Below are positions 25,727 through 64,000 of a DNA stretch of 64,000 nt, in pieces (within the stretch, counting starts at the first letter, position 1; each line of letters opens with the position of its first letter). Under the pieces are notes generated by a model. That model was not told the origin of the DNA, did not search any database, and saw only the letters and a list, made by a program, of their open reading frames with translations. The DNA is from Isurus oxyrinchus. Its lineage: Eukaryota. Location of the stretch: positions 99,200,001-99,264,000 of the forward strand of contig JANJGN010000021.1 of NCBI GenBank assembly GCA_026770705.1, read 5' to 3'. A program made the position numbers and the translations under genes.

Positions 25727-25987
25727 ACACGAACTCACTAACTGTGATATACACTGTAATCTCTGGCATTGAAGATTTTCCTGAGATTACAAATGCTGCG
25801 ATGGTCAATGGAGTCCAAATCGGTCATTATGACAGTGATGTCCGTCGGTGCATCCCCAGGCAGCAGTTCATGGCTGAATATTTCAATGTGAAACACTGGG
25901 ACTATGTCTCAAATCTGATAAACTCACATTCACACCTGGCAAAGGAGAATCTGAATGAAATACTGAAGATGACAAACCAGACATCCG
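25727..25987 (+). CDS. MHC class I-like gene, exon 2 (alpha-1 domain), non-classical
   Basis: Acceptor ttcacag| and donor G|GTAAG flank a 261-bp open phase-1/1 exon: (D)TNSLTVIYTVISGIEDFPEITNAAMVNGVQIGHYDS...HWDY...KMTNQTS. It keeps the class I FPE, YDS, W60 and N86 (NQT) glycosylation landmarks. Confidence 0.9.
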
Positions 25988-28900
25988 GTAAGATCACAAT
26001 GTAAAAACTTGTTGTTGATTGACCCCATTATACCCAGTGCCACTCCACTCAGCCCAACCCCCAGCTCTGATCCCAGCCTCACTCCAATCAGTCCATCTGC
26101 CACTGCTGACCCATGGGCCACTCCACGCAGCCCATCTGCCAGGTCTGACCCCTGCCTCACTCCAATCAGTCCGTCTGCCAGTGCTGACCCCTGGGTCGCT
26201 CCACTCAGCCCATCCCCCAGCTCTGACACTGCCTCACTCCAATCAGTCCGTCTGCCAGTCTGCCAGTGCTGACCCATGGGTCACTCCACTCAGTCCATCT
26301 CCCAACACAGACTCCTGGGTCACTCCACTCAGTCCATCTCCCAACATTGACCTGTGGGTCACTCCACTCAGCCTGCCTCCTGGCACATATGCTTGGGTCA
26401 CTCCACTCAGACCATCGCCTAGTAATGACCCCTGAGTCACTCACTCAGTCCATCTCCCAGCACTGATGCCTGGGTTACTCCAGTCAGCCCATTTCCCAGC
26501 ACTGACCCCTGGGTAATTCCACTCAGTCCATTTCTCAGCACAGACCCCTGGGTCACTCCACTCAGTCCATCTCCCAGCACAGACTCCTGGGTCACTCCAC
26601 TCCGTCCATCTCCCAACATTGACCTGTGGGTCACTCCATTCAGCCCACCTCCCAGCACTGACCCCTGGGTCACTCCACTCAGACCACCTCCCAGTAATGA
26701 CCCCTGAGTCATTCCACTCAGCCCATCTCCCAGCACTGACCCCTGGGTCACTCGGCTCAGTCCATTTCTCAACACTGACCCCTGGGTCACTCCACTCAGA
26801 CCATCTCCCAGTAATGACCCCTGAGTCACTCCACTCAGCCCATCTCCCAACACTGACCCCTGGGACACTCCGCTCAATCCATCACCCAGCACTGACCCTT
26901 GCGTAATTCCACTCAGTCCATTTCTCAGCACTGACCCCTGGATCGCTCCATTCAGACCAACTCCCAATATCTGAACCCAGTGTGAACCACTCAGTACATC
27001 TCCCAGCCCTGACCTCTAGGTCACTCTACTCAGCCCATCTCTCAGCACTGACCCCAGGGTCACTCCACTCAGCCCATCGTCCAGCAGTAACTCCTGAGTC
27101 ACTCCACTCAGCCCATCTCCCAGCACTGACCTCATGGTCACTCCATTCAGCCAATCTCCCAGCAATGACCACTCAGTCACTCCACTTCATCCATCACACA
27201 GCACTGACCCCTGGGTCACTTCACTCAGCCCATCTCCCAGCACTGACTCCTGGTTTGCTCCACTCAGTCCATCTCCCAGCACTGACCCCTGGCTCACGTG
27301 ACTCAGTCCCATCTCCCAGCACTGACCCCTGGGTCACTCCACTCAGACCATTTCTCAGCACTGAGCCCTGGATAACTCCACTCAGCCCATCTCCCAGCAC
27401 TGACCCCTGGGTCACTCTGCTCAGTCCATTCCTCAGCACTAACCCCTGGGTCACTCCACTCTGACCATTCCCAAGCACTGTTGCCTGGGTCGCTCGATTC
27501 AGCCCAACTCCCAACATCTGACCCCAGGGTGAACATCTCAGTCCATCTCTCAACATTAACCCTCAGTGACTCCGCTCAGTCCATGTCTCAGCACTGACCA
27601 CTGGGTCACTCCGCTCAGTCCATCTCCCAGTGCTGAACCCAGGGTCACTCCACACAGTCCATTTCCCTGCACTGACGCCTGGGTCACTCCACTCAGTCCA
27701 TCTCCCAGCGCTGACACCTGGGTCACTCCACTCAGTCTATTTCTCAGCACCGACCCCTGGGTAACTCCATTCAGTCCATCTCCAAGCACTGACCCCTGGG
27801 TCACTCCACTCAGTTCATTTCCAAGCACTGACCCCTGGGTCACTGTATTCAGTCCAACTCCCAACATCTGACCCCAGCGTGAATCTCTCAGTCCATCCAC
27901 CAACACTGACCTCGAGGTCACTCCACTCAGTCCATCGCCCAGCACTAACCCCTGGGTCACTCTGCTCAGTCCAGCTCTCAGCACTGACCCCTGGGTCACT
28001 ACACTCAGCCCATCGCTAGCACTAACCCTTGGGTCACTCCACTCAGCCGATCTCCCAGCACTGACCCCATGGTTACTCCATTCGGCCAACTCCCAGCACT
28101 GACCTCTCGGTCACTCCACTCAGTCAATTTCCTAGCGCTGACGCCTGGGTCACTCCATTCAGCCCATCTCCCAGCTCTGACCGCTGGGTCACTGCGCTCA
28201 GTCCATCTCTCAGCACTGAGTACTGGGTCACTGCGCTCAGTCCATCTCTCAACATTAACCCTTGGTGACTCCGCTCAGTTCATGTCTCAGCAATAACCCC
28301 TGGGTCACTCCACTCAGCCCATCGTCCAGCACTGACCACTGAGTCACTCCACTCAGTCCATGTCCCAGCACTGACCCCTGGGTCACTCCACTCAGTCCAT
28401 TTCCCAGCACTGATGCCTGGGTCACTCCACTCAGTCCATCTCCCAGCACTGACCCCTGGGTCACTCCATTCTGCACAACTCCCAACAGCTGATCCCAGCG
28501 TGAACCTCTCAGTCCATCTCCCAACAATGACCTCTAGTCACTCCACTCAGTCCATCACCCAGCACTGACCCCTGTGTCACTCCACTCAGTCCATCTCCCA
28601 GCTCTAACCCCTGGGTCGCTCTATTCAGCCCAACTCCCAATATCTGACCCCAGCGTGAAACTCTCAGTCCATCTCCCTACACTAACCTCTAGTCACTCCA
28701 CTCAGTCCATCTCTCAGCACTGACCTCTGACTGACTCCACTGAGTCCATCTCTCAGCACTGACCCCTGGGTCATTCCACTCAGTCCATTTCCCAGCACTG
28801 ACCCCTGGATCACTGCGCTGAGTCCATCTCTCAACATTAACCCACTGTGACTCCGCACTAGTCCATGTCTCAGCACTGACCGCTGGGTCACTCTACTCAG

Positions 28901-29499
28901 CCCATCGCTCAGCACTGACCCCTGGGTCACTCCACTCAGTCCATGTCTCAGCACTGACCCCTGGGTCACTCCACTCAGCGCATCTCACAGCACTGACCCC
29001 TGGCTCACGTGACTCAGTCCATCTCCCAGCACTGACGACTCAGTCCATCTCCCAGCACTGACCGCTGGGTCACTCGGCTCAGTCCATTTCTCAGCACTGA
29101 CCCCTGGGTAACTCCACTCAGTCCATCTCCAAGCACTGACCCCTGGGTCACTCCACTCAGTCCATTTCCAAGCACTGACCCCTGGGTCGCTGCATTCAGC
29201 CCAACTCCCAACATCTTATCCCAGCGTGAAGCTCTCAGTCCATCTCCCAACACTAACCTCCAGATCACTCCATTCAGTCAATCTCCTGGCACTGACCACT
29301 GGGTTGCTCCACTCAGTCGATCTCCCAGCACTGTCCCCTGGCTCACGCCACTCAGTTCATCTCCCAGCACTGTCCCCTGGCTCACGCCACTCAGTTCATC
29401 TCCCAGCACTGACCCCTGGGTCACTCCACTCAGTCAATTTCCTAGCGTTGACCCCTGGGTCACTCCACTCAGCCCATCGCCCAGCACTAACCCCTGGGT

Positions 29500-32400
29500 C
29501 ACTCCAGTCAGTCCATCTCCCAGCACTGACCACTGGGTCACTCGGCTCAGTCCATTTCTCAGCACTGACCCCTGGGTAACTCCACTCAGTCGATCTCCCA
29601 GCACTGTCCCCTGGCTCACGCCACTCAGTTCATCTCCCAGCACTGTCCCCTGGCTCACGCCACTCAGTTCATCTCCCAGCACTGACCCCTGGGTCACTCC
29701 ACTCAGTCAATTTCCTAGTGCTGACCCCTGGGTCACTCCACTCAGCCCATCGCCCAGCACTAACCCCTGGGTCACTCCACTCAGTCCATCTCCCAGCACT
29801 GACCCCTGGGTCACTTCACTCAGTTCATCTACCAACACTGACCTCGAGGTCACTCCACTCAGTCCATCTCCCAGCACTGACCCCTGGGTCACTCCACTCA
29901 GTCCATTTCCCAGCACTGACACCTGGGTCACTCCACTCAGTCCATTTCCCAGCACTGACACCTGGGTCGCTGCATTCAGCCCAACTCCCAACATCTGATC
30001 CCAGCGTGAACCTCTCAGTCCATCTCCCAGCACTGACCCCTGGGTCACTCCACTCAGTCCATCTCCCAGCACTGACCCCTGGGTCACTCCACTCAGTCCA
30101 TCTCCCAGCACTGACCCCTGGGTCACTCCACTCAGTCCATCTCCCAGCACTGATCGCTGGGTCGCTCCATCCAGCCGAACTCCCAACATCTCATCCCAGC
30201 GTGAACCACTCAGTCCATCTCCCAACACTGACCTCTAGGTCACTCCACTCAGTCCATCCCACAGCACTGACCACTGGGTCACTTCACTCAGTCCATCTAC
30301 CAACACTGACCTCGAGGTCACTCCACTCAGTCCATCTCCAAGCACTGACCCCTGGGTCACTGCGCTGAGTCCATCTCTCAACATTAATCCACTGTGTCTC
30401 CGCACGAGTCCATGTCTCAGCACTGACCGCTGGGTCACTCTACTCAGCCCATCACCCAGCACTGACCCCTGGGTCCCTCTGCTCAGTCCAGCTCTCAGCA
30501 TTGACCCCTGGGTCACTCCACTCAGTCCATGTCTCAGCACTGACCCCTGGGTCACTCCACTCAGCGCATCTCCCAGCACTGACCCCTGGCTCACGTGACT
30601 CAGTCCATCTCCCAGCACTGACCACTGGGTCACTCGGCTCAGTCCATTTCTCAGCACCGACCCCTGGGTAACTCCACTCAGTCCATCTCCAAGCACTGAC
30701 GCCTGGGTCACTCCACTCAGTCCATTACCAAGCACTGACCCCTGGGTCACTGCATTCAGCCCAACTCCCAACATCTGAACCCCGCGTGAACCTCTCAGTC
30801 CATCTACCAACACTGACCTCGAGGTCACTCCACTCAGCCCATCGCCCAGCAAGAACCCTCGGTCACTCCACTCAGTCTATCACACAGCACGGACCCCTGG
30901 GTCACTCCACTTTGCCCATCAATGACGCCTGGGTCACTCCACTCAGTCCATCTCCCAGCACTGACCACTGGGTCGCTCCACTCAGTTCATCTCTCAGCAC
31001 TGACCCCTGGGTCACTCCACTCACTCCATCTCCCAGCAGTGACCACTGGGTCACTCCACTCAGTCCATCACCCAGCAATGATGCCTGGGTCACTCCACTC
31101 AGTCCATCTCCCAGCACTGACCACTGGGTCGCTCCACTCAGTCCATCTCTCAGCACTGACCCCTGGGTCACTCCACTCAGTCCATCTCCCAACACTGACC
31201 CCTGGATCACTCCACTCAGCGCACCTCACAGCACTGACCCCTGGGTCACTCCACTCAGTCCTGCTCTCAGCTCTGACCCCTGGGTCACTCCACTCAGCCC
31301 ATCGCCCAGCACTAACCCCTGGATTACTCCACTCAGCCGAACCCGCAGCACTGAACCCTTGGTCACTCTACTCAGTCCATCACACAGCACGGACCCCTGG
31401 GTCACTTCACTCTGCCCATCACCCAGCAATGACGCCTGGGTCACTTCACTCAGTCCATCTCCCAGCACTGATCCCTGGGTCGCTCCATCCAGCCGAACTC
31501 CCAACATCTGAACCCAGCGTGAACCTCTCAGTCCATCTACCAACACTGACCTCGAGGTCACTCCACTCAGCCCATCGCCCAGCAAGAACCCTCGGTCACT
31601 CCACTCAGTCTATCACACGGCACGGACCCCTGGGTCACTGCACTCTGCCCATCAATGACGCCTGGGTCACTCCACTCAGTCCATCTCCCAGCACTGACCA
31701 CTGGGTCGCTCCACTCAGTCCATCTGTCAGCACTAACCCCTGTGTCTCTCCACTCAGTCCATCTCCCAGCACTGACCCCTGGGTCACTCCACTCAGCGCT
31801 TCTCACAGCACTGACCCCTGGGTCACTCCACTCAGTCCATCTACCAGCTCTGACCCCTGGGTCACTCCACTCAGTCCATCTCCCAGCACTAACCTCTGGG
31901 TCACTCTGCTCAGCGCATCTCACAGCACTGACCCCTGGGAACACTGCGCTCAGTCCATCTGCCAGCACTGACACCTGGGTCACTCCACGCAGTCCGTCTC
32001 CCAGCACTGACCCCTGAGTCACTCCACTAAGTCGATTTCCCAGCACTGACCCTTGGATTACTGCACTCATTCCATCTCCCAGCACTGTCCCTGGGTCACT
32101 CTGCTCAGTCTGTCGCTCAGGACTGACCTCCGGGTCACTCCACTCAAAGCACGCCCCAGCACTGACCTCTGGGTCACTGCGTTCAGTCCATCTCTCAGCA
32201 CTGACCCCTGTGTAACGCCACTCAGTCCATTTCCCAGCACTGACGACTGGGTCACTCCACTCAGCCCATCTCCTGCAATGACCCCTTGGCTACTCCACTC
32301 AGCCCATCTCCCGCTACTGACCTCTGTGTCGCTCCACTCAGTCAATCTAACAGCATTGACCCCTAGGTTACTCCACTCAGTCCAGCACCCATTACTGACC

Positions 32401-35400
32401 CCTGGGTCACAGCGCTCAGTCCATCTCTCAGCATTAACCCTGGGTGACTCCACTCAGTCCATCTCTCAGAACTGACCCCTGGAATAACCCGCCCAGTCCA
32501 CCTCTCAGCAGTGAGCCCTGGGTCACTCACCTCCAGTACTGACCCCTGGGTCACTCCACTCAGTGCATCTTGCAGAACTGACCACTGGGTCACTCTGCTC
32601 AGTCCATCTCTCAGCACTGACTTGTGTATCACTCTGCTCAGTCCATCTCCCAACACTGACCCCTAGGTGACTCCGCTCAGTCCATCTCCCAGCACTGACC
32701 ACTGGGTCACTCCGCTCAGTCCATCTCCCAGCACTGACCACTGGGTCACTGCGCTCAGTCCATCTCCCAGCACTGACCACTGGGTCACTGCGCTCAGCCC
32801 ATCTCCCAGCACTGACCCCTGGGTCACTGTGCTCAGTCCATCTCCCAGCACTGACCACTGGGTCAATCCACTCAGCCCATCTCCCTGCACAGACCGCTGG
32901 GTCACTGTGCTCAGCCCATCTCCCAACACTGACCCCTGTGTCGCTCCATTCAGCCCAACTCCAAACATCTGATCCCAGCGTGAACCTCTCAGTCCATCTG
33001 CGTTCAGTCCATCTCTCAGCACTGACCCCTGAGTCGCTTCACTCAGCCCATCTCCCAACACTGAAACCTGGGACACTCCACTCAGTCCATCACCCAGCAC
33101 TGACCCCTGGGTAATTCCACTCAGTCCATTTCTCAGCACTGACCCCTGGGTCACTCCACTCAGTCCATCTCCCAGCACAGACCCCTGCCACTCTTCAATC
33201 AGTCTGTCTGCCACTGCTGACACATGGGTCACTCCACTCAGTCCATCTCCCAGCACAGACTCTTGGGTCACTCCGCTCAGTCCATCTCCCAACATTGACC
33301 TGTGGGTCACTCTATTCAGTCCATCTCCCAGCACTGACCACTGGGTCATTCCGCTCAGTCCATCTCCCAGCACTGACCACTGGGTCACTGCGCTTAGCCC
33401 ATCTCCCAGCACTGACTCCTGGGTCACTGCACTCAGTCCATCTCCCAGCACTGACCACTGGGTCAATCCACTCAGCCCATCTCCCAGCACAGACCGCTGG
33501 GTCACTCCGCTCAGCCCATCTCCCAGCACTGACCACTGGGTGAATCCACTCAGCCCATCTCCCAGCACAGACCCCTGGGTCACTGCGCTCAGTCCATCTC
33601 CCAGCACTGACCACTGGATCAATCCACTCAGCCCATCTCCCAGCACAGACCGTTGGGTCACTGTGCTCAGTCCATCTCCCAGCACTGACTCCTGGGTCGC
33701 TCCATTCAGCCCAACTGCCAACATCTGATCCCAGCGTGAACCTCTCAGTCTATCTCCCAACACTAACCTCCAGGTCACTCCTCTCAGTCCATTTCCAAGC
33801 ACTAACCCCGGGACACTCCGCTCAGTCCATCTCTCAGCACTGACCCGTGGTTCACTCCACTCAGCCCATCACCCAGCAATGACACCTGGGTCACTCCACT
33901 CAGTCAATCTCCCAGCACTGACCCCTGGGTCACTCCACTCAGTTCATCTCCCAGCACTGACCCCTGGGTCACTCCACTCAGTCAATTTCCTAGCGTTGAC
34001 CCCTGGGTCACTCCACTCAGCCCATCGCCCAGCACTAACCCCTGGGTGACTCCAGTCAGTCCATCTCCCAGCACTGACCACTGGGTCACTCGGCTCAGTC
34101 CATTTCTCAGCACTGACCCCTGGGTAACTCCACTCAGTCGATCTCCCAGCACTGTCCCCTGGCTCACGCCACTCAGTTCATCTCCCAGCACTGTCCCCTG
34201 GCTCACGCCACTCAGTTCATCTCCCAGCACTGTCCCCTGGCTCACGCCACTCAGTTCATCTCCCAGCACTGACCCCTGGGTCACTCCACTCAGTCAATTT
34301 CCTAGCGCTGACCCCTGGGTCACTCCACTCAGCCCATCGCCCAGCACTAACCCCTGGGTCACTCCACTCAGTCCATCTCCCAGCACTGACCCCTGGGTCA
34401 CTTCACTCAGTTCATCTACCAACACTGACCTCGAGGTCACTCCACTCAGTCCATCTCCCAGCACTGACCCCTGGGTCACTCCACTCAGTCCATTTCCCAG
34501 CACTGACACCTGGGTCACTCCACTCAGTCCATTTCCCAGCACTGACACCTGGGTCGCTGCATTCAGCCCAACTCCCAACATCTGATCCCAGCGTGAACCT
34601 CTCAGTCCATCTCCCAGCACTGACCCCTGGGTCACTCCACTCAGTCCATCTCCCAGCACTGACCCCTGGGTCACTCCACTCAGTCCATCTCCCAGCACTG
34701 ACCCCTGGGTCACTCCACTCAGTCCATCTCCCAGCACTGATCGCTGGGTCGCTCCATCCAGCCGAACTCCCAACATCTCATCCCAGCGTGAACCACTCAG
34801 TCCATCTCCCAACACTGACCTCTAGGTCACTCCACTCAGTCCATCCCACATCACTGACCACTGGGTCACTTCACTCAGTCCATCTACCAACACTGACCTC
34901 GAGGTCACTCCACTCAGTCCATCTCCAAGCACTGACCCCTGGGTCACTGCGCTGAGTCCATCTCTCAACATTAATCCACTGTGTCTCCGCACGAGTCCAT
35001 GTCTCAGCACTGACCGCTGGGTCACTCTACTCAGCCCATCACCCAGCACTGACCCCTGGGTCCCTCTGCTCAGTCCAGCTCTCAGCATTGACCCCTGGGT
35101 CACTCCACTCAGTCCATGTCTCAGCACTGACCCCTGGGTCACTCCACTCAGCGCATCTCCCAGCACTGACCCCTGGCTCACGTGACTCAGTCCATCTCCC
35201 AGCACTGACCACTGGGTCACTCGGCTCAGTCCATTTCTCAGCACCGACCCCTGGGTAACTCCACTCAGTCCATCTCCAAGCACTGACGCCTGGGTCACTC
35301 CACTCAGTCCATTACCAAGCACTGACCCCTGGGTCACTGCATTCAGCCCAACTCCCAACATCTGAACCCCGCGTGAACCTCTCAGTCCATCTACCAACAC

Positions 35401-38400
35401 TGACCTCGAGGTCACTCCACTCAGCCCATCGCCCAGCAAGAACCCTCGGTCACTCCACTCAGTCTATCACACAGCACGGACCCCTGGGTCACTCCACTTT
35501 GCCCATCAATGACGCCTGGGTCACTCCACTCAGTCCATCTCCCAGCACTGACCACTGGGTCGCTCCACTCAGTTCATCTCTCAGCACTGACCCCTGGGTC
35601 ACTCCACTCACTCCATCTCCCAGCAGTGACCACTGGGTCACTCCACTCAGTCCATCACCCAGCAATGATGCCTGGGTCACTCCACTCAGTCCATCTCCCA
35701 GCACTGACCACTGGGTCGCTCCACTCAGTCCATCTCTCAGCACTGACCCCTGGGTCACTCCACTCAGTCCATCTCCCAGCACTGACCCCTGGGTCACTCC
35801 ACTCAGCGCATCTCACAGCACTGACCCCTGGGTCACTCCACTCAGTCCTGCTCTCAGCTCTGACCCCTGGGTCACTCCACTCAGCCCATCGCCCAGCACT
35901 AACCCCTGGATTACTCCACTCAGCCGAACTCGCAGCACTGAACCCTTGGTCACTCTACTCAGTCCATCACACAGCACGGACCCCTGGGTCACTTCACTCT
36001 GCCCATCACCCAGCAATGACGCCTGGGTCACTTCACTCAGTCCATCTCCCAGCACTGATCCCTGGGTCGCTCCATCCAGCCGAACTCCCAACATCTGAAC
36101 CCAGCGTGAACCTCTCAGTCCATCTACCAACACTGACCTCGAGGTCACTCCACTCAGCCCATCGCCCAGCAAGAACCCTCGGTCACTCCACTCAGTCTAT
36201 CACACGGCACGGACCCCTGGGTCACTGCACTCTGCCCATCAATGACGCCTGGGTCACTCCACTCAGTCCATCTCCCAGCACTGACCACTGGCTCGCTCCA
36301 CTCAGTCCATCTGTCAGCACTAACCCCTGTGTCTCTCCACTCAGTCCATCTCCCAGCACTGACCCCTGGGTCACTCCACTCAGCGCATCTCACAGCACTG
36401 ACCCCTGGGTCACTCCACTCAGTCCATCTACCAGCTCTGACCCCTGGGACACTCCACTCAGTCCATCTCCCAGCACTAACCTCTGGGTCACTCTGCTCAG
36501 CGCATCTCACAGCACTGACCCCTGGGAACACTGCGCTCAGTCCATCTGCCAGCACTGACACCTGGGTCACTCCACGCAGTCCGTCTCCCAGCACTGACCC
36601 CTGAGTCACTCCACTAAGTCGATTTCCCAGCACTGACCCTTGGATTACTGCACTCATTCCATCTCCCAGCACTGTCCCTGGGTCACTCTGCTCAGTCTGT
36701 CGCTCAGGACTGACCTCCGGGTCACTCCACTCAAAGCACGTCCCAGCACTGACCTCTGGGTCACTGCGTTCAGTCCATCTCTCAGCACTGACCCCTGTGT
36801 AACGCCACTCAGTCCATTTCCCAGCACTGACGACTGGGTCACTCCACTCAGCCCATCTCCTGCAATGACCCCTTGGCTACTCCACTCAGCCCATCTCCCG
36901 CTACTGACCTCTGTGTCGCTCCACTCCGTCAATCTAACAGCATTGACCCCTAGGTTACTCCACTCAGTCCAGCACCCATTACTGACCCCTGGGTCACAGC
37001 GCTCAGTCCATCTCTCAGCATTAACCCTGGGTGACTCCACTCAGTCCATCTCTCAGAACTGACCCCTGGAATAACCCGCCCAGTCCACCTCTCAGCAGTG
37101 AGCCCTGGGTCACTCACCTCCAGTACTGACCCCTGGGTCACTCCACTCAGTGCATCTTGCAGAACTGACCACTGGGTCACTCTGCTCAGTCCATCTCTCA
37201 GCACTGACTTGTGTATCACTCTGCTCAGTCCATCTCCCAACACTGACCCCTAGGTGACTCCGCTCAGTCCATCTCCCAGCACTGACCACTGGGTCACTCC
37301 GCTCAGTCCATCTCCCAGCACTGACCACTGGGTCACTGCGCTCAGTCCATCTCCCAGCACTGACCACTGGGTCACTGCGCTCAGCCCATCTCCCAGCACT
37401 GACCCCTGGGTCACTGCGCTCAGTCCATCTCCCAGCACTGACCACTGGGTCAATCCACTCAGCCCATCTCCCTGCACAGACCGCTGGGTCACTGTGCTCA
37501 GCCCATCTCCCAACACTGACCCCTGTGTCGCTCCATTCAGCCCAACTCCAAACATCTGATCCCAGCGTGAACCTCTCAGTCCATCTGCGTTCAGTCCATC
37601 TCTCAGCACTGACCCCTGAGTCGCTTCACTCAGCCCATCTCCCAACACTGAAACCTGGGACACTCCACTCAGTCCATCACCCAGCACTGACCCCTGGGTA
37701 ATTCCACTCAGTCCATTTCTCAGCACTGACCCCTGGGTCACTCCACTCAGTCCATCTCCCAGCACAGACCCCTGCCACTCTTCAATCAGTCTGTCTGCCA
37801 CTGCTGACACATGGGTCACTCCACTCAGTCCATCTCCCAGCACAGACTCTTGGGTCACTCCGCTCAGTCCATCTCCCAACATTGACCTGTGGGTCACTCT
37901 ATTCAGTCCATCTCCCAGCACTGACCACTGGGTCATTCCGCTCAGTCCATCTCCCAGCACTGACCACTGGGTCACTGCGCTTAGCCCATCTCCCAGCACT
38001 GACTCCTGGGTCACTGCACTCAGTCCATCTCCCAGCACTGACCACTGGGTCAATCCACTCAGCCCATCTCCCAGCACAGACCGCTGGGTCACTCCGCTCA
38101 GCCCATCTCCCAGCACTGACCACTGGGTGAATCCACTCAGCCCATCTCCCAGCACAGACCCCTGGGTCACTGCGCTCAGTCCATCTCCCAGCACTGACCA
38201 CTGGATCAATCCACTCAGCCCAATTCCCAGCACAGACCGTTGGGTCACTGTGCTCAGTCCATCTCCCAGCACTGACTCCTGGGTCGCTCCATTCAGCCCA
38301 ACTGCCAACATCTGATCCCAGCGTGAACCTCTCAGTCTATCTCCCAACACTAACCTCCAGGTCACTCCTCTCAGTCCATTTCCAAGCACTAACCCCGGGA

Positions 38401-38520
38401 CACTCCGCTCAGTCCATCTCTCAGCACTGACCCGTGGTTCACTCCACTCAGCCCATCACCCAGCAATGACGCCTGGGTCACTCCACTCAGTCAATCTCCC
38501 AGCACTGACCCCTGGGTCAC
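29500..38520. repeat. 4587-bp tandem higher-order duplication within the satellite
   Basis: Near-identical ORFs at a constant offset of 4587 (29707/34294, 30235/34822, 30922/35509, 32663/37250, 33540/38127). Boundaries are approximate. Confidence 0.93.
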
Positions 38521-41500
38521 TCCACTCAGCGCAAATCCCATCATTTGAAATCAGGTGAACATCTCAGTCCATCTCTCAGCACTGACCCCTGGGTCACTCC
38601 ACTCAGTCCATCTCCCAGCACTGATCACTGGGTCACAGCACTCAGTCCATCTCCCAGCGCTGAACCCTGGATCACTCCACTCAGTCCATTTCTCAGCACT
38701 GACCCCTGGGTCACTCCTCTCATTCCAGTTCCCAGCGCTGAACCCTGGATCACTCCACTCAGTCCATTTCCCAGCACTGACGCCTGGGTCACTCCACTCA
38801 GCACATCGCCCAGCACTGACCACTGGGTCACTCCACTCAGTCTATCTCTAAGCGGTGACCCCTGGGTCACTCCTCTCAATCCATTTCCCAGCACTGACAC
38901 CTGGGTCACTCCACGCAGTCCATCTCCCAGCACTGACCGCTGGGTCGCTCCATCCAGCCGAACTCCCAACATCTGATCCCAGCATGAACCTCTCAGTCCA
39001 TCTCCCAACACTGACCTCTAGATCACTCCACTCAGTCCATCTGCCAGCACTGATGCCTGGGTTACTCCATTCAGCTCATCTACCAGCACTGACCCTTGGG
39101 TCACTCCGCTCAGTCCATTTCTCAGCACTGACCCCTGGGTCACTCCACTCAGTCCATCTCCCAGCATTGACCCCTGGTTCGCTCCATTCAGCCCAGCACC
39201 CAACATCTGACCCCAGCGTGAACCTCTCAGTCCATCTCCCAGCACTGACCTCTAGGTCACTCCAATCAGTCCATCACCCGGCACTAACCCCAGGGCCACT
39301 CCGGTCTCTCCATCTCTTAGCACTGACCCCTGGGCCACTCCACTCAGTCCATTTCTCAGCACTGACGCCTGGGTCACTCCACTCAGCACATCGCCCAGCA
39401 CTGACCACTGGGTCACTCCACTCAGTCTATCTCTAAGCGGTGACCCCTGGGTCACTCCTCTCAATCCATTTCCCAGCACTGACACCTGGGTCACTCCACG
39501 CAGTCCATCTCCCAGCACTGACCGCTGGGTCGCTCCATCCAGCCGAACTCCCAACATCTGATCCCAGCGTGAACCTCTCAGTCCATTTCCTAACACTGAC
39601 CTCTAGGTCACTCCACTCAATCCATCCCACAGCACTAACCCCTGGGTCACTCCACTCAGTCCATCTCTCTGCACTGACCACAGGTTCATTCCACTCAGTC
39701 CATCTCCCAGCACTGACCCCTGGGGCACTCCACTCAGCCCATTGCCCAGCCTTAACCCCTGGGACACTCCTCTCAGCACATTGCCCAGCATTAACCCCTG
39801 GGTCACTCCATTCAGCCCATCTCCCAGCACTGAACCCATGGTCACTCAATTCAGCCAATCTCCCAGCACTGACCGCTGGGTCACTCCACTCAGCCCATCT
39901 CCCAGCACAGAACCCATGGTCACTCAATTCAGCCAATCTCCCAGCACTGACCCCTGGCTCATGCCACTCAGGCCATTTCCCAGCACTGATGCGTGGGTCA
40001 TTCCACTCAGTCCATTTCCCAGCACTGACCTCTGGGTCACTCCATTCAGCCCAACACCCAATATCTGATCCCAGCGTGAACCTCTCAGTCCATCTCCCAG
40101 CACTGATCACTGGGTCACTCCACTCAGTCCATCTGCCAGCACTGATGCCTGGGTTACTCCATTCAGCTCATCTACCAGCACTGACCCTTGGGTCACTCCG
40201 CTCAGTCCATTTCTCAGCACTGACGCCTGGGACACTCCATTCAGCCCATCTCCCAACATCTGAGCCAGCGTGAAGCTCTCAGTCCATCTCCCAGCACTGA
40301 CCTCTAGGTCAGTCCACTCAGTCCATCTCCCAGGACTGACCCCTGGGTCTCTCCACTCAGTCCATCTCCCAGCACTGACCTCGGGTCACTCCACTCAGTC
40401 CATTTCCAAACACTGACCCCTGGGACACTCCACTCTGTCCATTTCTCAGCACTGACGCCTAGGTTGGTCCATTCAGCCCATCTCCCAACATCTGACCCCA
40501 GTGTGAATCTCTCAGTCCATCGCCCAGCACTGAACTCTAGGTCACTCCACTCAGTCCATCGCACAGCTCTAACCCCAGGGACACTCCACTCAGTCCATCT
40601 CTCAGCACTGACCCCTGGGTCACTCCGCTCAGTCCATCGCCCAGCACTGACCCTGGGTCAGTCCGCTCATTCCATTTCTCAGCACTGACCCCTGGGTAAC
40701 TCTGCTCAGTCCATTTCTCAGCACTGACACCTGGGTCTCTCCACTCATTCCATCTCCCAGCACTGACCCCTGGGTCACTCCGCTCAGTCCATCGCCCAGC
40801 ACTAACCCCTGGGTCACTCCGCTCATTCCATTTCTCAGCACTCACCCCTGGGTCACTCCACTCAGTCCATTTCCCAGCATGGATGCCTGGGTTGCTCCAT
40901 TCAGCTCAACTCCCAACATCTGACCCCAGCGTGAACCTCTCAGCCCATCTCCCAGCACTGTCCCCTGGGTCAGTCCACTCAGCCCATCTCCCAGCACTGA
41001 CCCCATGGTTACTCCATTCAGACAATCTCCCAGCACTGACCCCTGGGTCACTCCATTCAGCCAATCACCCAGCAAGTATGCTTGGGTCACTCCATTCAGC
41101 CCATCTCCCAGCACTGGTGACTGGCTCACGCCACTCAGTCCATCTCCCAGCACTGACCTCTGGGTTGCTCCACTCAGCCCAACACCCAACACCTGACACC
41201 AGGGTGAACATCTCAGTCCATCTCTCAGCACTGAGCCCTGGGTTATTCCACTCAGCCCATCTCCCAGCACTGATGACTGGCTCACGCCACTCAGTCCATC
41301 TCCCAGCACTGACCTCTGGGTCGCTCCACTCAGCCCAACACCCAACACCTGACCCCAGGGTGAACATCTCAGTCCATCACACAGCAATGACCCCTGGGTC
41401 ACTTCACTCAGCCCATCACCCAGCACTCACCCCTGGGTCACTCTGCTCATTGCTCTCCCAGCACTGACTCCTGGTTCGCTCCACTCAGTACATCTCCCAG

Positions 41501-50500: not shown

Positions 50501-50849
50501 ATTTCTCAGCACTGACCCCTGGGACACTCCACTCAGTCCATTTCTCAACACTGACGCCTGGGACACTCCATTCAGCCCATCTCCCAACATCTGAGCCAGC
50601 GTGAAGCTCTCAGTCCATCTCCCAGCACTGACCTCTAGGTCAGTCCACTCAGTCCATCTCCCAGGACTGACCCCTGGGTCTCTCCACTCAGTCCATCTCC
50701 CAGCACTGACCTCGGGTCACTCCACTCAGTCCATTTCCAAACACTGACCCCTGGGACACTCCACTCTGTCCATTTCTCAGCACTGACGCCTAGGTTGGTC
50801 CATTCAGCCCATCTCCCAACATCTGACCCCAGTGTGAATCTCTCAGTCC

Positions 50850-53800: not shown

Positions 53801-55220
53801 CAGTCCATCTCTCAGCACTGACCCCTGGGTTATTCCACTCAGCCCATCTCCCAGCACTGATGACTGGCTCACGCCACTCAGTCCATCTCCCAGCACTGAC
53901 CTCTGGGTCGCTCCACTCAGCCCAACACCCAACACCTGACCCCAGGGTGAACATCTCAGTCCATCTCTCAGCACTGACTCCTGTGTCACCCCACTCAGTC
54001 AATTTCCTAGCCCTGACGTCTGGGTCAATCCACTCAGCCCATCTCCCAGCACAGACCCCTGGATCACTGCGCTTGTCCATCTCTCAACATTAACTCTCGG
54101 TGACTCCGCTCAGTCCATGTCTCAGCACTGACCCTGGGGTCACTTTCCTCAGTCCATCTCCCAGCGCCGAACCCTGGGTCACTCCACTCAGTCCATTTCC
54201 AAGCACTGACGCCTGGATTACTCCACTCAGCCCATCGCCCAGGACTGACCCCTAGGTCACTCCACTCAGTCTATCTCTCAGCAGTGACCCCTGAGTCACT
54301 CAGCTCGGTCCAACTTCCAGCACTGACCCCTGGGTCACTCCACTCAGCCCATCTCCCAGCACTGACCACTGGGTCACTCCACTCAGTCCATTTCCAAGCA
54401 CGGATGCCTGGGTTACTCCATTCAGCCCATCACCCAGCACTGACCACTGGGTCACTCCACTCAGCCCATCTCCCAGCACTGACCCCTGGGTCACTTCGCT
54501 CAGTCCATTTCCCAGCACTGAACCCTGGGTCTCTCCACTCAGTCCATCTCCCAGCACTGATCCCTGGGTCGCTCCATTCAGCCCAACTCTCTACATGTGA
54601 TTCCAGCGTGAACCTCTCAGTCCATCTCCCAACACTGACCTTTAGGTCACTCCACTCAGTCCATCGCCCAGCACTAACCCCTGGGTCACTCCGCGCTGTC
54701 CATCTCTCAGCACTGACCCCTGGGTCTCTCCACTCATTCCATCTCCCAGCACTGATGCCTGGGTCAGTCCACTTAGTCCATTTCTCAGCACTGACCCCTG
54801 GGTGTCTCCACTCATTCCATCTCCCAGCACTGACGCCTGGGTCAGTCCACTCAGTCCATCTCCCAGCACTGACCCCTGGTTCATGTGACTCAATCTATCT
54901 CCCAGCACTGATCACTGGGTCACTCCACTCAGTCCATCTGCCAGCACTGATGCCTGGGTTACTCCATTCAGCTCATCTACCAGCACTGACCCTTGGGTCA
55001 CTCCGCTCAGTCCATTTCTCAGCACTGACCCCTGGGACACTCCACTCAGTCCATTTCTCAGCACTGACGCCTGGGACACTCCATTCAGCCCATCTCCCAA
55101 CATCTGAGCCAGCGTGAAGCTCTCAGTCCATCTCCCAGCACTGACCTCTAGGTCAGTCCACTCAGTCCATCTCCCAGGACTGACCCCTGGGTCTCTCCAC
55201 TCAGTCCATCTCCCAGCACT
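50850..55220. repeat. 2256-bp tandem higher-order duplication within the satellite, with a further partial copy near 57.8-59.0 kb
   Basis: ORF pairs 50868/53124, 51173/53429, 52028/54284 and 52656/54912 (offset 2256), plus 50868/57908 (offset 7040). Confidence 0.9.
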
Positions 55221-58200: not shown

Positions 58201-61200
58201 ATTTCTCAGCACTCACCCCTGGGTCACTCCACTCAGTCCATTTCCCAGCATGGATGCCTGGGTTGCTCCATTCAGCCCATCTCCCAACATCTGACCCCAG
58301 CGTGAACCTCTCAGCCCATCTCCCAGCACTGTCCCCTGGGTCAGTCCACTCAGCCCATCTCCCAGCACTGACCCCATGGTTACTCCATTCAGACAATCTC
58401 CCAGCACTGACCCCTGGGTCACTCCATTCAGCCAATCACCCAGCAAGTACGCTTGGGTCACTCCATTCAGCCCATCTCCCAGCACTGGTGACTGGCTCAC
58501 GCCACTCAGTCCATCTCCCAGCACTGACCTCTGGGTTGCTCCACTCAGCCCAACACCCAACATCTGACCCCAGGGTGAACATCTCAGTCCATCTCTCAGC
58601 ACTGACCCCTGGGTTATTCCACTCAGCCCATCTCCCAGCACTGATGACTGGCTCACGCCACTCAGTCCATCTCCCAGCACTGACCTCTGGGTCGCTCCAC
58701 TCAGCCCAACACCCAACACCTGACCCCAGGGTGAACATCTCAGTCCATCTCTCAGCACTGACTCCTGTGTCACCCCACTCAGTCAATTTCCTAGCCCTGA
58801 CGTCTGGGTCAATCCACTCAGCCCATCTCCCAGCACAGACCCCTGGATCACTGCGCTTGTCCATCTCTCAACATTAACTCTCGGTGACTCCGCTCAGTCC
58901 ATGTCTCAGCACTGACCCTGGGGTCACTTTCCTCAGTCCATCTCCCAGCGCCGAACCCTGGGTCACTCCACTCAGTCCATTTCCAAGCACTGACGCCTGG
59001 ATTACTCCACTCAGCCCATCGCCCAGCACTAACCCCTGGGTCGCTCCATTCAGCCCAACTCCCTACATGTGATTCCAGCGTGAACCTCTCAGTCCATCTC
59101 CCAACACTGACCTTTAGGTCACTCCACTCAGTCCATCGCCCAGCACTAACCCCTGGGTCACTCTGCGCTGTCCATCTCTCAGCACTGACCCCTGGGTCTC
59201 TCCACTCATTCCATCTCCCAGCACTGATGCCTGGGTCAGTCCACTTAGTCCATTTCTCAGCACTGACCCCTGGGTCTCTCCACTCATTCCATCTCCCAGC
59301 ACTGACGCCTGGGTCAGTCCACTCAGTCCATCTCCCAGCACTGACCCCTGGGTCACTCCTCTCAGCCCATCTCCCAGCACTGACCCCATGGACACTCCAT
59401 TCAGCCAATCTCCCAACACTGACCCCTGGGTCACTCCACTCAGCCCATCTCCCAGCATTGACCCCATGGTCACTCCATTCAGCCCATCGCCCAGCACTGA
59501 CCTCTGGTTCACTCTGCTCCATCCATTTCTCAGCACTGACCCCTGGGTAACTCCACTCAGTCCATCTCCCAGCAGTGACCACTGGCTCACGCCACTCAGT
59601 CCGTCTCCCAGTACTGATCACTGGGTCACTCCACTCAGCCCATCGCCAAGCACTGACCCCTGGGTCACTACACTCAGCCCATCAGCCAGCACTGACCTCT
59701 GGGTCGCTCCACTCAGCACAAATCCCAACATCTGACCCCAGGATGAACATCTCAGTCCATCTCTCAGCACTGTCCCATGGGTCACTCCACTCAGTCCATC
59801 TTGCAGCACTGACCCCTAGGTCCCTCCACTCAGTACATCACCCATCACTGACCCCTGGGTCACAGCGCTCAGTTTATCTCTCAGCATTAACCCTGGGTGA
59901 CTCCGCTCAGTCCATCTGTCAGCACCGAGCCCTAGATCACTCCACCCAGCCCATCGCCCAGCATTAACCCCTGGGTCACTCCACTCAGACCATTTCCCAG
60001 CATGGATGCCTGGGTTGCTCCATTCAGCTCAACTCCCAACATCTGACCCCAGCGTGAACCTCTCAGCCCATCTCCCAGCACTGTCCCCTGGGTCAGTCCA
60101 CTCAGCCCATCTCCCAGCACTGACCCCATGGTCACTCCACTCAGCGCATCTCACAGCTCTGACCCCTGGGTCACTCCACTCAGTCCAGCTCTCAGCTCTG
60201 ACCTCTGGGTCACTCCACTCAGCCCATCGCCCAGCACTAACCCCTGGGTCACTCCACTCAGCCGATCTCGCAGCACTGAACCCTCGGTCACTCCACTCTG
60301 TCCATCACACAGCACGGACCCCTGGGTCACTCCACTCTGCCCATCACCCAGCAATGACGCCTGGGTCACTCCACTCAATCCATCTCCCAGCACTGACCGC
60401 TGGGTCGCTCCACTCAGTCCATCTCCCAGCACTGAACCCTGGGTTACTCCACTCAGTCCATCTCCCAGCACTGACCCCTGGGTTACTCCACTCAGTCCAT
60501 CTCCCAGCATTGACACCTGGGTCACTCCACTCAGTCCATCTCCCAGCACTGATCCCTGGGTCGCTCCATCCAGCCGAACTCCCAACATCTCATCCCAGCA
60601 TGAACCACTCAGTCCATCTCCCAACACTGACCTTTAGGTCACTCCACTCAGTCCATCCCACAGCACTGACCACTGGGTCACTTCACTCAGTCCATCTACC
60701 AACACTGACCTCGAGGTCACTCCACTCAGTCCATCTCCAAGCACTGACCCCTGGGTCATTGCGCTGAGTCCATCTCTCAACATTATCCCACTGTGACTCC
60801 GCACTAGTCCATGTCTCAGCACTGACCGCTGGGTCACTCTACTCAGCCCATCGCTCAGCAATGACCCCTGGGTCACTCCGCTCAGTCCAGCTCTCAGCAT
60901 TGACCCCTGGGTCACTCCACTCAGTCCATGTCTCAGCACTGACCCCTGGGTCACACCACTCAGCGCATCTCCCAGCATGACCTCTGGCTCACGTGACTCA
61001 GTCCATCTCCCAGCACTGACCCCTGGGTAACTCCACTCAGTCCATCTCCAAGCACTGACCCCTGGGTCACTCCACTCAGTCCATTACCAAGCACTGACGC
61101 CTGGGTCACTCCACTCAGTCCAATACCAAGCACAGACCCCTGGGTCACTGCGCTCAGTCCATCTCCCAGCACTGACCACTGGATCAATCCACTCAGCCCA

Positions 61201-64000
61201 TCTCCCAGCACAGACCGTTGGGTCACTGTGCTTAGTCCATCTCCCAGCACTGACCCCTGGGTCGCTCGATTCAGCCCAACTCCCAACATCTGATCCCAGC
61301 GTGAACCTCTCAGTCCATCTCCCAACACAAACCTCCAGGTCACTCTACTCAGTCCATTTCCAAGCACTAACCCCGGGACACTCCGCTTAGTCCATCTCTC
61401 AGCACTGACCCGTGGGTCACTCCACTCAGCCCATCACCCAGCAATGACGCCTGGGTCACTCCACTCAGCCCAAATCCCAACATCTGATCCCAGGTGAACA
61501 TCTCAGTCCATCTCTCAGCACTGTCCCCTGGGTCACTCCACTCAGTCCATCTCCCAGCACTGACCACTGTGTCACTGCGCTCTGCCCATCTCCCAGCACT
61601 GACCCCTGGGTCAATCCACTCAGCCCATCTCCCGCACAGACCGCTGGGTCACTGTGCTCAGTCCATCTCCCAGCACTGACCACTGGATCAATCCACTCAG
61701 CCCATCTCCCAGCACAGACCGTTGGGTCACTGTGCTTAGTCCATCTCCCAGCACTGACCCCTGGGTCGCTCCATTCAGCCCAACTCCCAACATCTGATCC
61801 CAGCGTGAACCTCTCAGTCCATCTCCCAACACAAACCTCCAGGTCACTCTACTCTGTCCATTTCCAAGCACTAACCCCGGGACACTCCGCTCAGTCCATC
61901 TCTCAGCACTGACCCGTGGGTCACTCCACTCAGCCCATCACACAGCAATGACTCCTGGGTCACTCCACTCAGCCCAAATCCCAACATCTGAACTCAGGTG
62001 AACATCTCAGTCCATCTCTCAGCACTGACCTCTGGGTCACTCCACTCAGTCCATCTCCCAGGACTGACCACTGGGTCACTGCGCTCAGCCCATCTCCCAG
62101 CACTGACCCCTGGGTCACTGCGCTCAGTCCATCTCCCAGCACTGACCACTGGGTCAATCCACTCAGCCCATCTCCCGCACAGACCGCTGGGTCACTGTGC
62201 TCAGTCCATCTCCCAACACTGACCCCTGTGTCGCTCCATTCAGCCCAACTCCAAACATCTGATCCCAGCGTGAACCTCTCAGTCCATCTCCCAACACTAA
62301 CCCCTGAGTCACTTCACTCAGCCCATCTCCCAACACTGAAACCTGGGACACTCCACTCAGTCCATCACCCAGCACTGACCCCTGGGTAATTCCACTCAGT
62401 CCATTTCTCAGCACTGACCCCTGGGTAACTCCACTCAGTCCATCTCCCAGCACAGACCCCTGCCACTCTTCAATCATTCCGTCTGCCACTGCTGACCCAT
62501 GGGTCACTCCACTCAGTCCATCTCCCAGCACAGACTCTTGGGTCACTCCGCTCAGTTCATCTCCCAACATTGACCTGTGGGTCACTCTATTCAGTCCATC
62601 TCCCAGCACTGACCACTGGGTCATTCCGCACAGTCCATCTCCCAGCACTGACCACTGGGTCACTGCGCTCAGTCCATCTCCCAGCACTTACCACTGGGTC
62701 AATCCACTCAGCCTATCTCCCAGCACAGACCGCTGGGTCACTCCGCTCAGTCCATCTCCCACCACTGACCACTGGGTCAATCCACTCAGCCCATCTCCCA
62801 GCACAGACCCCTGGGTCACTGCGCTTAGTCCATCTCCCAGCACTGACCACTGGATCAATCCACTCAGCCCATCTCGCAGCACAGACCGTGGGTCACTGTG
62901 CTCAGTCCATCTCCCAGCACTGACTCCTGGGTCGCTCCATTCAGCCCAACTGCCAACATCTGATCCCAGCGTGAACCTCTCAGTCTATCTCCCAACACTA
63001 ACCTCCAGGTCACTCCTCTCAGTCCATTTCCAAGCACTAACCCCGGGACACTCCGCTCAGTCCATCTCTCAGCACTGACCCGTGGTTCACTCCACTCAGC
63101 CCATCACCCAGCAATGACGCCTGGGTCACTCCACTCAGTCAATCTCCCAGCACTGACCCCTGGGTCACTCCACTCAGCCCAAATCCCAACATTTGATCCC
63201 AGGTGAACATCTCAGTCCATCTCTCAGCACTTACCCCTGGGTCACTCCACTCAGTCCATCTCCCAGCACTGAACCCTGGATCACTCCACTCAGTCCATGT
63301 CTCAGCACTGACCCCTTGGTCACTCCACTCATTCTATCTCCCAGCGCTGAACCCTGGATCACTCCACTCAGTCCATTTCCCAGCACTGATGCCTGGGTCA
63401 CTCCACTCAGCCCATCGCCCAGCACTGACCACTGGGTCACTCCACTCAGTCTATCTCTAAGCGGTTACCCCTGGGTCACTCCACTCAGTCCATTTCCCAG
63501 CACTGACACCTGGGTCACTCCACGCAGTCCATCTCCCAGCACTGACCGCTGGGTCGCTCCATCCAGCCGAACTCCCAACATCTGATCCCAGCATGAACCT
63601 CTCAGTCCATCTCCCAACACTGACCTCTAGATCACTCCACTCAGTCCATCTGCGAGCAGTGATGCCTGGGTTACTCCATTCAGCTCATCTACCAGCACTG
63701 ACCCTTGGGTCACTCCGCTCAGTCCATTTCTCAGCACTGACCCCTGAGTCACTCCACTCAGTCCATTACCAAGCACTGATGCCTGGGTCACTCCACTCAG
63801 TCCATTACCAAGCACTGACCCCTGGGTCGCTGCATTCAGCCCAACTCCCAACATCTGAACCCCGCGTGAACCTCTCAGTCCATCTACCAACACTGACCTC
63901 GAGGTCACTCCACTCAGCCCATCGCCCAGCAAGAACCCTCGGTCACTCCACTCAGTTCATCTCCCAGCACTGACCCCTGAGTCACTCCACTAAGTCGATT

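Follow-up and report, generated by a model that had tools for sequence, protein, structure and literature searches.

The 39-bp tandem array described here is a non-coding satellite in intron 2, which parts the two binding-groove exons of an intact nonclassical MHC class I gene (g11) of a lamniform shark. It probably grew in place from an old minisatellite of ~600 bp through recurring unequal exchanges inside the array, and it probably persists because the intron is still spliced, not for a function. The initial annotation had placed a satellite of more than 38 kb in this intron; the array proved to be real and bigger than stated, with 66.5 kb of the 39-bp unit and another 10 kb of a 28-bp unit. 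The stretch analysed (the window) measures 64 kb, and its position n corresponds to position 99,200,000 + n of contig C21 (G000:C21), a numbering continued past the end of the window.

The satellite and its host gene

Within the window, TRF reports a single 39-bp array at 26041-63996 with 976 copies, and with the flanking genome added it ends at 92531, comprising ~1,710 copies (1,709 by TRF) in 66.5 kb that contain no N. The gene and its intron are made up as follows:

21428..21479, + strand, leader exon from ATG to GT donor; RNA-type contigs show its splice to alpha-1 (21478-25726, GT..AG)
25727..25987, + strand, alpha-1 exon of 261 nt with an open frame and AG/GT, Pfam MHC_I E 5e-5, 99% to white shark P0001
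25988..26040, + strand, unique head of intron 2, common to g1 and g4
26041..64000, + strand, part of the 39-bp satellite array within the window (TRF), continuing to 92531
92524-102690, + strand, 28-bp array of ~360 copies and ~10 kb, abutting the 39-bp array, in the neighbouring genome
to 106340, + strand, unique tail of intron 2, 89-92% colinear with the g4 tail
106341-106616, + strand, alpha-2 exon, beyond the window
106734-107012, + strand, alpha-3 exon, beyond the window
113160-113276, + strand, TM exon, beyond the window
near 113956, 114454 and 114800, + strand, cytoplasmic exons, beyond the window

Intron 2 of g11 is 80,351 bp long without an N anywhere, the two arrays account for 76,568 bp of it (95%), and the intronic satellite makes up 82% of the span from ATG to stop. 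The array had been described as starting about 30 bp past the alpha-1 donor, where the actual distance is 45-53 bp. It has the make-up of a satellite array, with uninterrupted head-to-tail units over tens of kilobases, growth by block duplication and non-coding sequence. It is covered by 1,711 units, only four of which fall below 60% identity, and in the rest of the 564-kb region it finds just two matches of at most 46 bp each; the tiling and this comparison both uphold the earlier statement that no transposon insertion or exon is visible in it. The array lies 19 Mb from the contig end.

That the array is intronic is borne out by the downstream exons, as alpha-2, alpha-3, TM and tail were all located and the gene does not lack its 3' half. 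The class I architecture (leader, alpha-1, -2, -3, TM, tail) is complete, and every exon has an open frame and canonical splice sites; the Pfam MHC_I score of alpha-1 stays under the curated cut-off because just half the domain is present. Three runs, presumed to be RNA (their type is guessed), served as expression source, and their contigs (373 nt) have no difference to the alpha-1 exon, include the leader joint and depart from the genome exactly at the donor. In one DNA run the summed contig depth on the array was far above that on the exon, a value that is not a measure of copy number.

When compared with bird class I chains, the white shark orthologue P0001 has the positions Y59, R/Y84, Y159, W167 and C101/C164 replaced and Y7, T143, K146, W147 and Y171 retained, in class I numbering, and the same residues are found in the focal exons. 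With both alpha-2 cysteines and several peptide-end anchors replaced, and with an alpha-1 that is 99% identical between species, g11 does not have the features of a classical, highly polymorphic locus. Loss of invariant peptide-anchoring residues reportedly marks the UEA lineage, as Almeida et al. are said to have described in 2021. Judged from its sequence, g11 is an intact nonclassical class I gene of putative UEA lineage, and the database names are generic.

There are 12 class I copies in C21:98.96-99.33 Mb, with further class I/II-like matches along C21, and this multicopy cluster on the MHC chromosome resembles the elasmobranch MHC-Ib cluster of multicopy nonclassical class I genes (UEA), which likewise lies on the MHC chromosome (PMC10751288). 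For white shark the published list counts 13 MHC-Ib genes within 0.6 Mb, their order matching that of the g11 cluster (PMC10751288, supplementary file 1), and the 99%-identical white shark protein lies on a 115.8-Mb contig. The UEA cluster is flanked by brd2 and beta-2-microglobulin according to the same source (PMC10751288). Bromodomain matches on C21 occur only at 80.26 Mb, 19 Mb from the cluster; white shark BRD2/B2M lie 1.3 Mb from theirs.

Probable growth of the array from a seed

Four related paralogues have the 39-bp unit close to where their intron 2 begins, in 5.6, 15.5, 20.6 and ~1,710 copies. Three of the carriers (g1, g3, g4) are broken and g11 is the sole intact one. The closest copy to g11 is g4 (alpha-1 93.5%, intron tail 89-92%, alpha-2 94.9%), which is inverted relative to it and whose intron 2 contains, in this order, 15.5 copies of the 39-bp unit, a stretch of degenerate 28-bp sequence and the same unique tail as g11. 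Elsewhere in the genome the 28-bp unit matches g4 alone. The seed of ~0.75 kb in g4 and the 77-kb product in g11 are 190 kb apart. The parts of the array that bear on its growth, and the neighbouring paralogue g10, are as follows:

26041..26646, + strand, ancestral seed part of the 39-bp array, 95.2% over 660 bp from the donor, colinear with the whole 15.5-copy g4 array
29234..38529, + strand, largest block duplication within the array, a tandem pair of 4.7-kb copies with 98.3% identity
50295..55293, + strand, young tandem duplication of a block within the array, at an offset of 2,257 bp and with 99.2% identity
6147..6407, - strand, alpha-1 exon of g10, with AT in place of GT as donor; its intron 2 lacks the 39-bp unit
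2300..4314, - strand, unrelated minisatellite (31-bp x 66) inside g10 intron 2 (TRF)

Given that g4 keeps the same intron in seed form, expansion of the array in situ is well supported. The array had been proposed to be both of local and of recent origin. The first part stands and the second needs amending: the 39-bp unit is no recent arrival, being shared by four paralogues with alpha-1 exons 65-94% alike, and the block twins are 93-99% identical. The array is a patchwork of block duplications of ~1-5 kb (the twins listed measure 0.9-4.7 kb at 93-99.3%). Among 132 segments of 500 bp, the best twin reached at least 99% identity in 49, 97-99% in 18, 94-97% in 24, 90-94% in 21 and less than 90% in 20, a spread that marks an expansion of mixed age. 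The most diverged monomers were said to lie at the array's edge, which is so to a slight degree: in identity to the consensus the first 10 monomers stand at 0.84 vs a mean of 0.87, within the lowest 7% of windows, and the first 50 at 0.869. The true mark of the edge is its first 2.5 kb, which have no close twin elsewhere in the array (80-87%), together with the 95% colinearity of its first 659 bp with g4.

An intronic VNTR or minisatellite can grow into a euchromatic satellite via block duplication. The g11 array is like such growth in its head-to-tail units, higher-order blocks, old conserved edge and younger interior, and unlike its usual course in that paralogues still display both the seed and the giant state, and in that the expansion took in a pair of neighbouring units with no relation to each other. 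The blocks would have been copied by unequal sister-chromatid or homologue exchange, or by replication template switching. Growth may have begun after the g4/g11 duplication and may still continue, and the adjoining 28-bp unit would have been amplified by the same local instability. Alpha-1 would be spliced to alpha-2 across 80 kb, with selection indifferent to the length of the intron.

The absence of the 39-bp unit beside the paralogous exon at 6147 was confirmed (score 24 vs a shuffle mean of 22.6 and maximum of 28). The g10 intron 2 is not free of repeats, as it has its own 31-bp array, and three other paralogues do have the 39-bp unit. On a genome-wide scale, the idea that the monomer is confined to class I introns holds for the exact 39-mer (23/23 exact matches in the g11 intron) and fails for the wider family, which forms giant arrays on contigs C32 and C18, so that one observation named beforehand as counting against the initial annotation has in part been made. 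Their consensus is identical to the g11 unit at 33/39 and 34/39 positions, respectively, and no class I exon was found in the flanks examined. The C32 array comprises 2,330 units in 90.6 kb; in its flanks (~50 kb left, 85 kb right) the ORFs listed are just retroelement-like ones, accompanied by other satellites, and tblastn of 130 kb gave no class I match, a search that small exons of other genes could escape. The C18 array is about 150 kb long, as judged from both ends and one middle stretch. Its placement in a PHLDB1 intron was rejected, the two adjoining exons being a partial duplicate of a fuller gene at C18:27.28 Mb, as was kinship of the 39-bp unit with a 33-bp dispersed shark repeat, the score of which was equalled by 6% of 300 shuffles. 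An unrelated array of at least 54 kb lies 117 kb downstream. Tandem-repeat-dominated regions have been described for shark genomes (PMC10620051; bioRxiv 2025.06.08.657570). Giant arrays are a common background.

These related arrays, together with the 49/132 segments that have a twin of at least 99% (8/132 at 100%), would fit an assembly artefact, with a dispersed satellite wrongly joined or inflated at this site, and given such twins the exact array length may be off. We nevertheless regard an artefact as very doubtful: the intron is without N, both of its ends run colinear with g4 and keep its order, 846 distinct monomers occur among the 1,711, the longest duplicated blocks differ by 0.7-3%, and the C32 and C18 arrays have a different consensus.

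Coding, regulatory and recombinational readings

The unit length is a multiple of three (39 bp = 13 codons), one frame is Pro/Ser/Thr-rich and mucin-like, and open frames extend to 406 codons in the g11 array and beyond 4,000 codons in its sister on C32. A hidden coding or mini-exon array, to which we would give next to no chance, is contradicted by the length variants (25% of the g11 units are not 39 nt, mostly 38 and 40), by a pN/pS of 0.78 without third-position bias, by the stop variants (37 among 2,150 changes, about the neutral rate) and by the C32 array, in which 94/2,330 units have another length, mostly frame-shifting, and were carried along when blocks duplicated, in the company of other satellites. 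In the closest organism, RNA-type contigs also have no depth on the array start. Neither AATAAA/ATTAAA nor GTAAG occurs on the sense strand of the 66.5-kb array, a lack that is permissive at most because it is expected from the monomer make-up. The strand bias of GT-type donor words as a sign of selection was discarded, as the monomer make-up explains it.

A length-dependent regulator or insulator, in which the 80-kb intron slows or weakens transcription, attracts heterochromatin or protects the gene from its neighbours' gene conversion and decay, seems unlikely to us. The giant array does sit in one of the 3/11 C21 copies with open alpha-1 to alpha-3 exons and canonical splice sites, but the introns of the other two intact copies (3.1 kb and 24.9 kb) have almost no minisatellite. 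The white shark gene at the matching position, presumed orthologous by gene order, spans 58 kb vs an array-free span of 16.8 kb in g11, a hint that the long intron may be old and kept, and the CpG observed/expected of 0.25 would fit past methylation. Satellite-filled giant introns of Drosophila have a dedicated expression programme (PMC6508621). A shield from conversion does not extend downstream, however, as alpha-3 of g11 is as homogenised as that of the rest of the family (96.8-98.6%).

The initial annotation had further proposed a crossover platform, for which the salmonid precedent of class I alpha-1 shuffling via a long intron 2 is indeed in print (PMC1971071, PMC6523485). That the array promotes unequal or allelic crossover recombining alpha-1 with alpha-2/3, as in salmonid UBA, we consider quite improbable for g11. 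By length alone an 80-kb intron would have to lift allelic crossover between the exons, and homology for ectopic exchange exists in the 39-bp unit common to four paralogues. The proposed check for tree incongruence came out differently at two levels. Family-wide, the protein trees of alpha-1 and of alpha-2 reject each other (AU p 5e-18 and 3e-4; 20 sequences, leaving aside g2 with its frame-shifted alpha-2 and one duplicate isoform), and the trees of 15 lamniform sequences are likewise incongruent (p 2e-6 and 0.009). A g1+g3 grouping is allowed by alpha-2 (p 0.65) and rejected by alpha-1 (p 0.005), and the g1 intron ends in a 59-bp unit, as that of g3 does. Within the four 39-bp carriers, by contrast, a single topology suits both exons: alpha-1 and alpha-2 accept (g1,g4,g11) with p 0.74 and 0.48 and (g4,g11) with p 0.13 and 0.66, respectively, and triplet scans reveal no switch between exons for g11/g4.

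The alpha-1/alpha-2/TM pairing is moreover identical in three lamniform species, and alpha-1/alpha-2 identities of g11 are 99/97% to the white shark orthologue and 93/95% to that of basking shark. No exon swap is apparent at g11 because these identities match and because g4 is nearest in alpha-1, tail and alpha-2 alike. The clearest discordances within the genome concern pairs that have no 39-bp unit (g5/g10, 99.2% vs 92.4%; g2/g7, 99.6% vs 94.5%), and all three partner paralogues are pseudogenes, the nearest, g4, being inverted. The gene is nonclassical with an alpha-1 nearly invariant between species, in contrast to salmonid UBA, and the salmonid pattern of one alpha-2 with divergent alpha-1 was not found among orthologues or array-bearing paralogues, g1 being ambiguous.

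Comparison with known systems and significance

Salmonid UBA and also zebrafish and medaka classical class I genes have a long intron 2 (PMC6523485, PMC1971071), and g11 with its 80.35 kb shares with them an intron 2 of more than 10 kb. The teleost intron belongs to a classical polymorphic locus with documented alleles that have swapped alpha-1, whereas that of g11 spans 80 kb, is 95% tandem satellite and lies in a nonclassical gene that has kept one alpha-1/alpha-2 pairing in three species. Drosophila kl-3 and kl-5 are likewise functional genes whose length is mostly intronic satellite, though there the satellite consists of simple repeats, reaches megabase size, lies on the Y and has RNA-binding proteins dedicated to it (PMC6508621), unlike the g11 satellite with its 77 kb made of 39-bp and 28-bp units in the MHC cluster, where a regulatory role is at most putative. 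Our literature search, which did not reach the Almeida papers that may describe UEA introns, turned up no publication that deals with satellite sequence in class I introns of sharks, and the word 'intron' occurs 0 times in the main text of PMC10751288.

In the nonclassical class I genes of sharks, intron 2 may alternatively be a recurrent site of satellite gigantism, where unrelated units (39 and 28 bp; 59, 54, 32 and 31 bp in neighbouring class I copies) inflate the groove-splitting intron, with selection favouring the uncoupling of a diverse alpha-1 from the conversion-homogenised alpha-3 half or the tuning of expression by intron length; there is some chance of this, albeit a small one. With g11 excluded, the minisatellite share is 14.6% in intron 2 vs 7.5% in intron 1, 0% in intron 4 and 5.3% in the rest of the cluster, an excess not made of independent cases because the seeds are partly shared by descent. 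This richness beyond g11, and the wider-family trees that reject each other, do not sit easily with in-place growth without function. The occurrence of the giant array in the sole intact carrier of four is not predicted by neutrality either, in a sample that is tiny.

We contend that the array, likely a satellite grown in place, is extreme but probably without function on present evidence. Together, g4 and g11 represent a natural before-and-after of satellite birth within a working gene, and the order and tempo of block duplication are directly readable because seed and product are preserved 190 kb apart. In assemblies, introns of this kind can break up or conceal class I genes of sharks, and they can also thwart typing by genomic PCR. 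Should the recurrence in intron 2 exceed the shark background, the teleost long-intron-2 story would come to include nonclassical genes and the oldest lineage that has an MHC.

The host gene and its second intron

The 39-bp satellite lies in intron 2 of g11, one of the class I gene copies numbered g1 to g12 along contig C21 of the Isurus oxyrinchus assembly (G000); the window spans C21:99200001-99264000.

Exons of g11 (window numbering, continued past the window's end)
21428: leader exon, open
25727-25987: alpha-1 exon, class I alpha-1, 5' of the array, open
106341-106616: alpha-2 exon, open
106734-107012: alpha-3 exon, open
113160: TM exon, open; tail exons likewise open

Splice sites are canonical wherever printed. 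Both cysteines of alpha-2 and several of the peptide anchors are missing from the protein, which is therefore nonclassical. Its alpha-1 shares 99% identity with white shark XP_041069592 and 93% with a protein of the basking shark, identities that place the source among the lamniform sharks. The family has 12 copies within 0.37 Mb of C21, which bears the MHC, and its lineage is likely UEA, judging by the published cluster description (PMC10751288); in a check of synteny with brd2, the only bromodomain hits on C21 fell at 80.26 Mb, 19 Mb from the cluster. Contigs of presumed RNA from two samples contain the leader/alpha-1 joint; those of the closer organism show no difference from g11 alpha-1, and their match to the genome stops at the donor, where another 85 bases of non-intron sequence follow, as would be compatible with splicing to alpha-2. 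Of 11 C21 copies three are intact, and g11 is the only intact carrier of the 39-bp unit.

In the window, Tandem Repeats Finder returned a single 39-bp array from 26041 to the window's end; with 200 kb more downstream sequence it ends at 92531 (1,709 copies, 66.5 kb, no N), directly abutted 3' by a 28-bp array of approximately 360 copies. Intron 2 measures 80.35 kb and is 95% tandem repeat. This confirms the satellite of the initial annotation, with alpha-2, alpha-3, TM and tail exons downstream, but places its start 45-53 bp after the alpha-1 donor instead of about 30 bp. Tiling gave 1,711 units, 846 of them distinct, with a mean of 87% identity to the consensus; since merely 4 of the 1,711 fall below 60%, no space is left for an insertion, in agreement with the initial annotation. 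The 5' edge is indeed more diverged, albeit slightly (0.84 over the first 10 units). A coding reading of the unit as 13 codons was ruled out, because 25% of the units deviate from 39 nt in length, pN/pS is 0.78 and stops occur at about the neutral rate.

Origin, growth and relatives of the array

The 39-bp unit also occurs in intron 2 of g1 (20.6 copies), g3 (5.6) and g4 (15.5), while scores in seven further paralogues fall inside the shuffle range, with g9 equalling the shuffle maximum. In g4, a broken sister paralogue, the opening 651 bp of intron 2 have 95.2% identity to the initial 659 bp of the g11 intron, compared with only about 82% to the giant array's interior, and the old seed is therefore the 5' edge. 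The 39-bp units of g4 are followed by degenerate 28-bp units over approximately 150 bp, outside g11 the sole match to the 28-bp unit in a genome search, and by a tail 89-92% identical to that of g11. By its sequence the g4 intron reads as a miniature of the g11 intron; the colinear seed, the degenerate 28-bp units and the shared tail together indicate that the 39-bp and the 28-bp array of g11 both grew in place. Colinearity at both ends also makes an assembly artefact unlikely, although the array may be some kb longer or shorter than assembled.

The array grew by block duplication: a 4.7-kb tandem duplication is 98.3% identical, 2.1-2.7-kb blocks reach 99.2-99.3% and older ones 93-97%. Of 132 segments of the array, each 500 bp long, 49 are matched by another at ≥99% and 20 lack any such twin at 90%. 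The expansion was drawn out over time from an old seed. The proposed origin in situ is well supported (g4 seed, both edges) but its recency is not (old seed, block ages mixed at 93-99%). The gene at the corresponding place in white shark, a putative orthologue by gene order, spans 58 kb, against an array-free span of 16.8 kb in g11, which hints that a long intron predates the split of white shark and Isurus.

All 23 genome-wide occurrences of the exact consensus lie in g11 intron 2. Among 38 of 300 candidates scored, related arrays at 69-79% identity were found on contigs C32 (90.6 kb; consensus 33/39 identical) and C18 (approximately 150 kb; 34/39), and no class I exon was found in the flanks examined at either. 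Confinement to class I introns therefore applies to the exact consensus but not to the wider family. The C32 array stands in a row of neighbouring giant satellites (C32:2829527-3005000) whose other members have units of 51 bp (5 kb), 28 bp (24 kb), 11 bp (8 kb) and 22 bp (25 kb or more); its own open frames reach 4,312 codons and could mislead gene callers. The C18 array directly adjoins a two-exon partial PHLDB1 duplicate (C18:25461254-25463196), 1.8 Mb from the fuller gene. An unrelated 39-bp satellite (17/39 identical) runs from C21:99410039 to beyond 99464000 (at least 54 kb), starting 117 kb past the focal array and downstream of zinc-finger-like 84-bp repeats.

Exon shuffling and the class I cluster

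The initial annotation proposed the array as a platform shuffling alpha-1 against alpha-2/3. At g11 this was not borne out: alpha-1 and alpha-2 keep the same pairing in white shark (99/97% identity) and basking shark (93/95%), and triplet scans detected no switch between the two exons. The copy closest to g11 is g4 for both exons, alpha-1 (93.5%) and alpha-2 (94.9%), and for the intron between them. In AU tests on 12 copies (g1-g11 and g13, the copy on contig C16), the best alpha-2 tree was rejected by alpha-1 data (p 0.0075), whereas the best alpha-1 tree was not rejected by alpha-2 (p 0.078); the groupings (g1,g4,g11) and (g4,g11) were accepted by both exons, alpha-2 being unable to place g1. 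Across species, and counting against this reading, the domain trees (20 and 15 sequences) rejected each other, on 86-91-residue alignments of automatic gene models and with selection as a further caveat, indicating that recombination or conversion takes place between these domains in the family. The expected incongruence is thus family-wide and spares the g4/g11 grouping; the sharpest discordances in the Isurus genome are between pairs without the 39-bp unit. Salmonid shuffling is a matter of alleles at a polymorphic classical locus (PMC6523485, PMC1971071), and the test at g11 covers one haplotype. In layout the g11 intron is similar to the long intron 2 found in class I genes of teleosts, but it does not behave as a shuffling intron in the defining tests at its locus.

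Along C21:98.95-99.33 Mb, the leader exons found in the 12 copies are 98-100% identical and alpha-3 95-99%, compared with 54-99.6% for alpha-1 and 75-95% for alpha-2; leader and alpha-3 show strong concerted evolution, pseudogenes included. Leader exons form divergent head-to-head pairs (C21:98955096/98965376, 99045011/99047073, 99150525/99153749), and the cluster has therefore seemingly grown by duplication of inverted gene pairs. Both g10 (window 6147) and g5 (C21:99054100), which are 99.2% alike in alpha-1, have lost the alpha-1 donor, which reads AT in place of GT; in g10 alpha-3 is truncated as well. Next to the cluster (C21:98935467-98942324) lies a class I gene from another lineage, with a 54-bp array (6.9 kb) taking up nearly all of its intron 2. 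A 59-bp unit stands at the end of intron 2 in g1, g3 and g6, within that of g7, and in 85 copies in g2.

Locations of the 59-bp unit (C21)
98983526-98988541
99014318-99015294
99113732-99113938

The copy g13 (C16:53762651-53780000) has open alpha-1 to alpha-3 frames, and its intron 2 contains 42 tandem copies of a 32-bp unit. Elasmobranch class Ib genes are said to map to the MHC only (PMC10751288); the position of g13 on a second large contig may reflect translocation or mis-scaffolding. At C21:66128408-66134199, class I-like matches to alpha-1 and alpha-2 share one 845-codon open frame, an unusual layout.

Possible role of the giant intron

Tandem-repeat-dominated regions and long introns are described in sharks (PMC10620051, bioRxiv 2025.06.08.657570); no report of satellite-filled class I introns in sharks was found in the literature searched, the coverage of which excluded key lineage papers. 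By analogy with the giant introns of Drosophila (PMC6508621), the g11 intron may have a regulatory role: the giant array sits in the sole intact carrier of the unit, and minisatellites, counted without g11 and not as independent events, make up 14.6% of intron 2 against 7.5% of intron 1, 0% of intron 4 and 5.3% of the rest of the cluster. The focal array itself behaves as an ordinary intronic minisatellite turned satellite; it is real, extreme and well explained in origin, and probably without a function.
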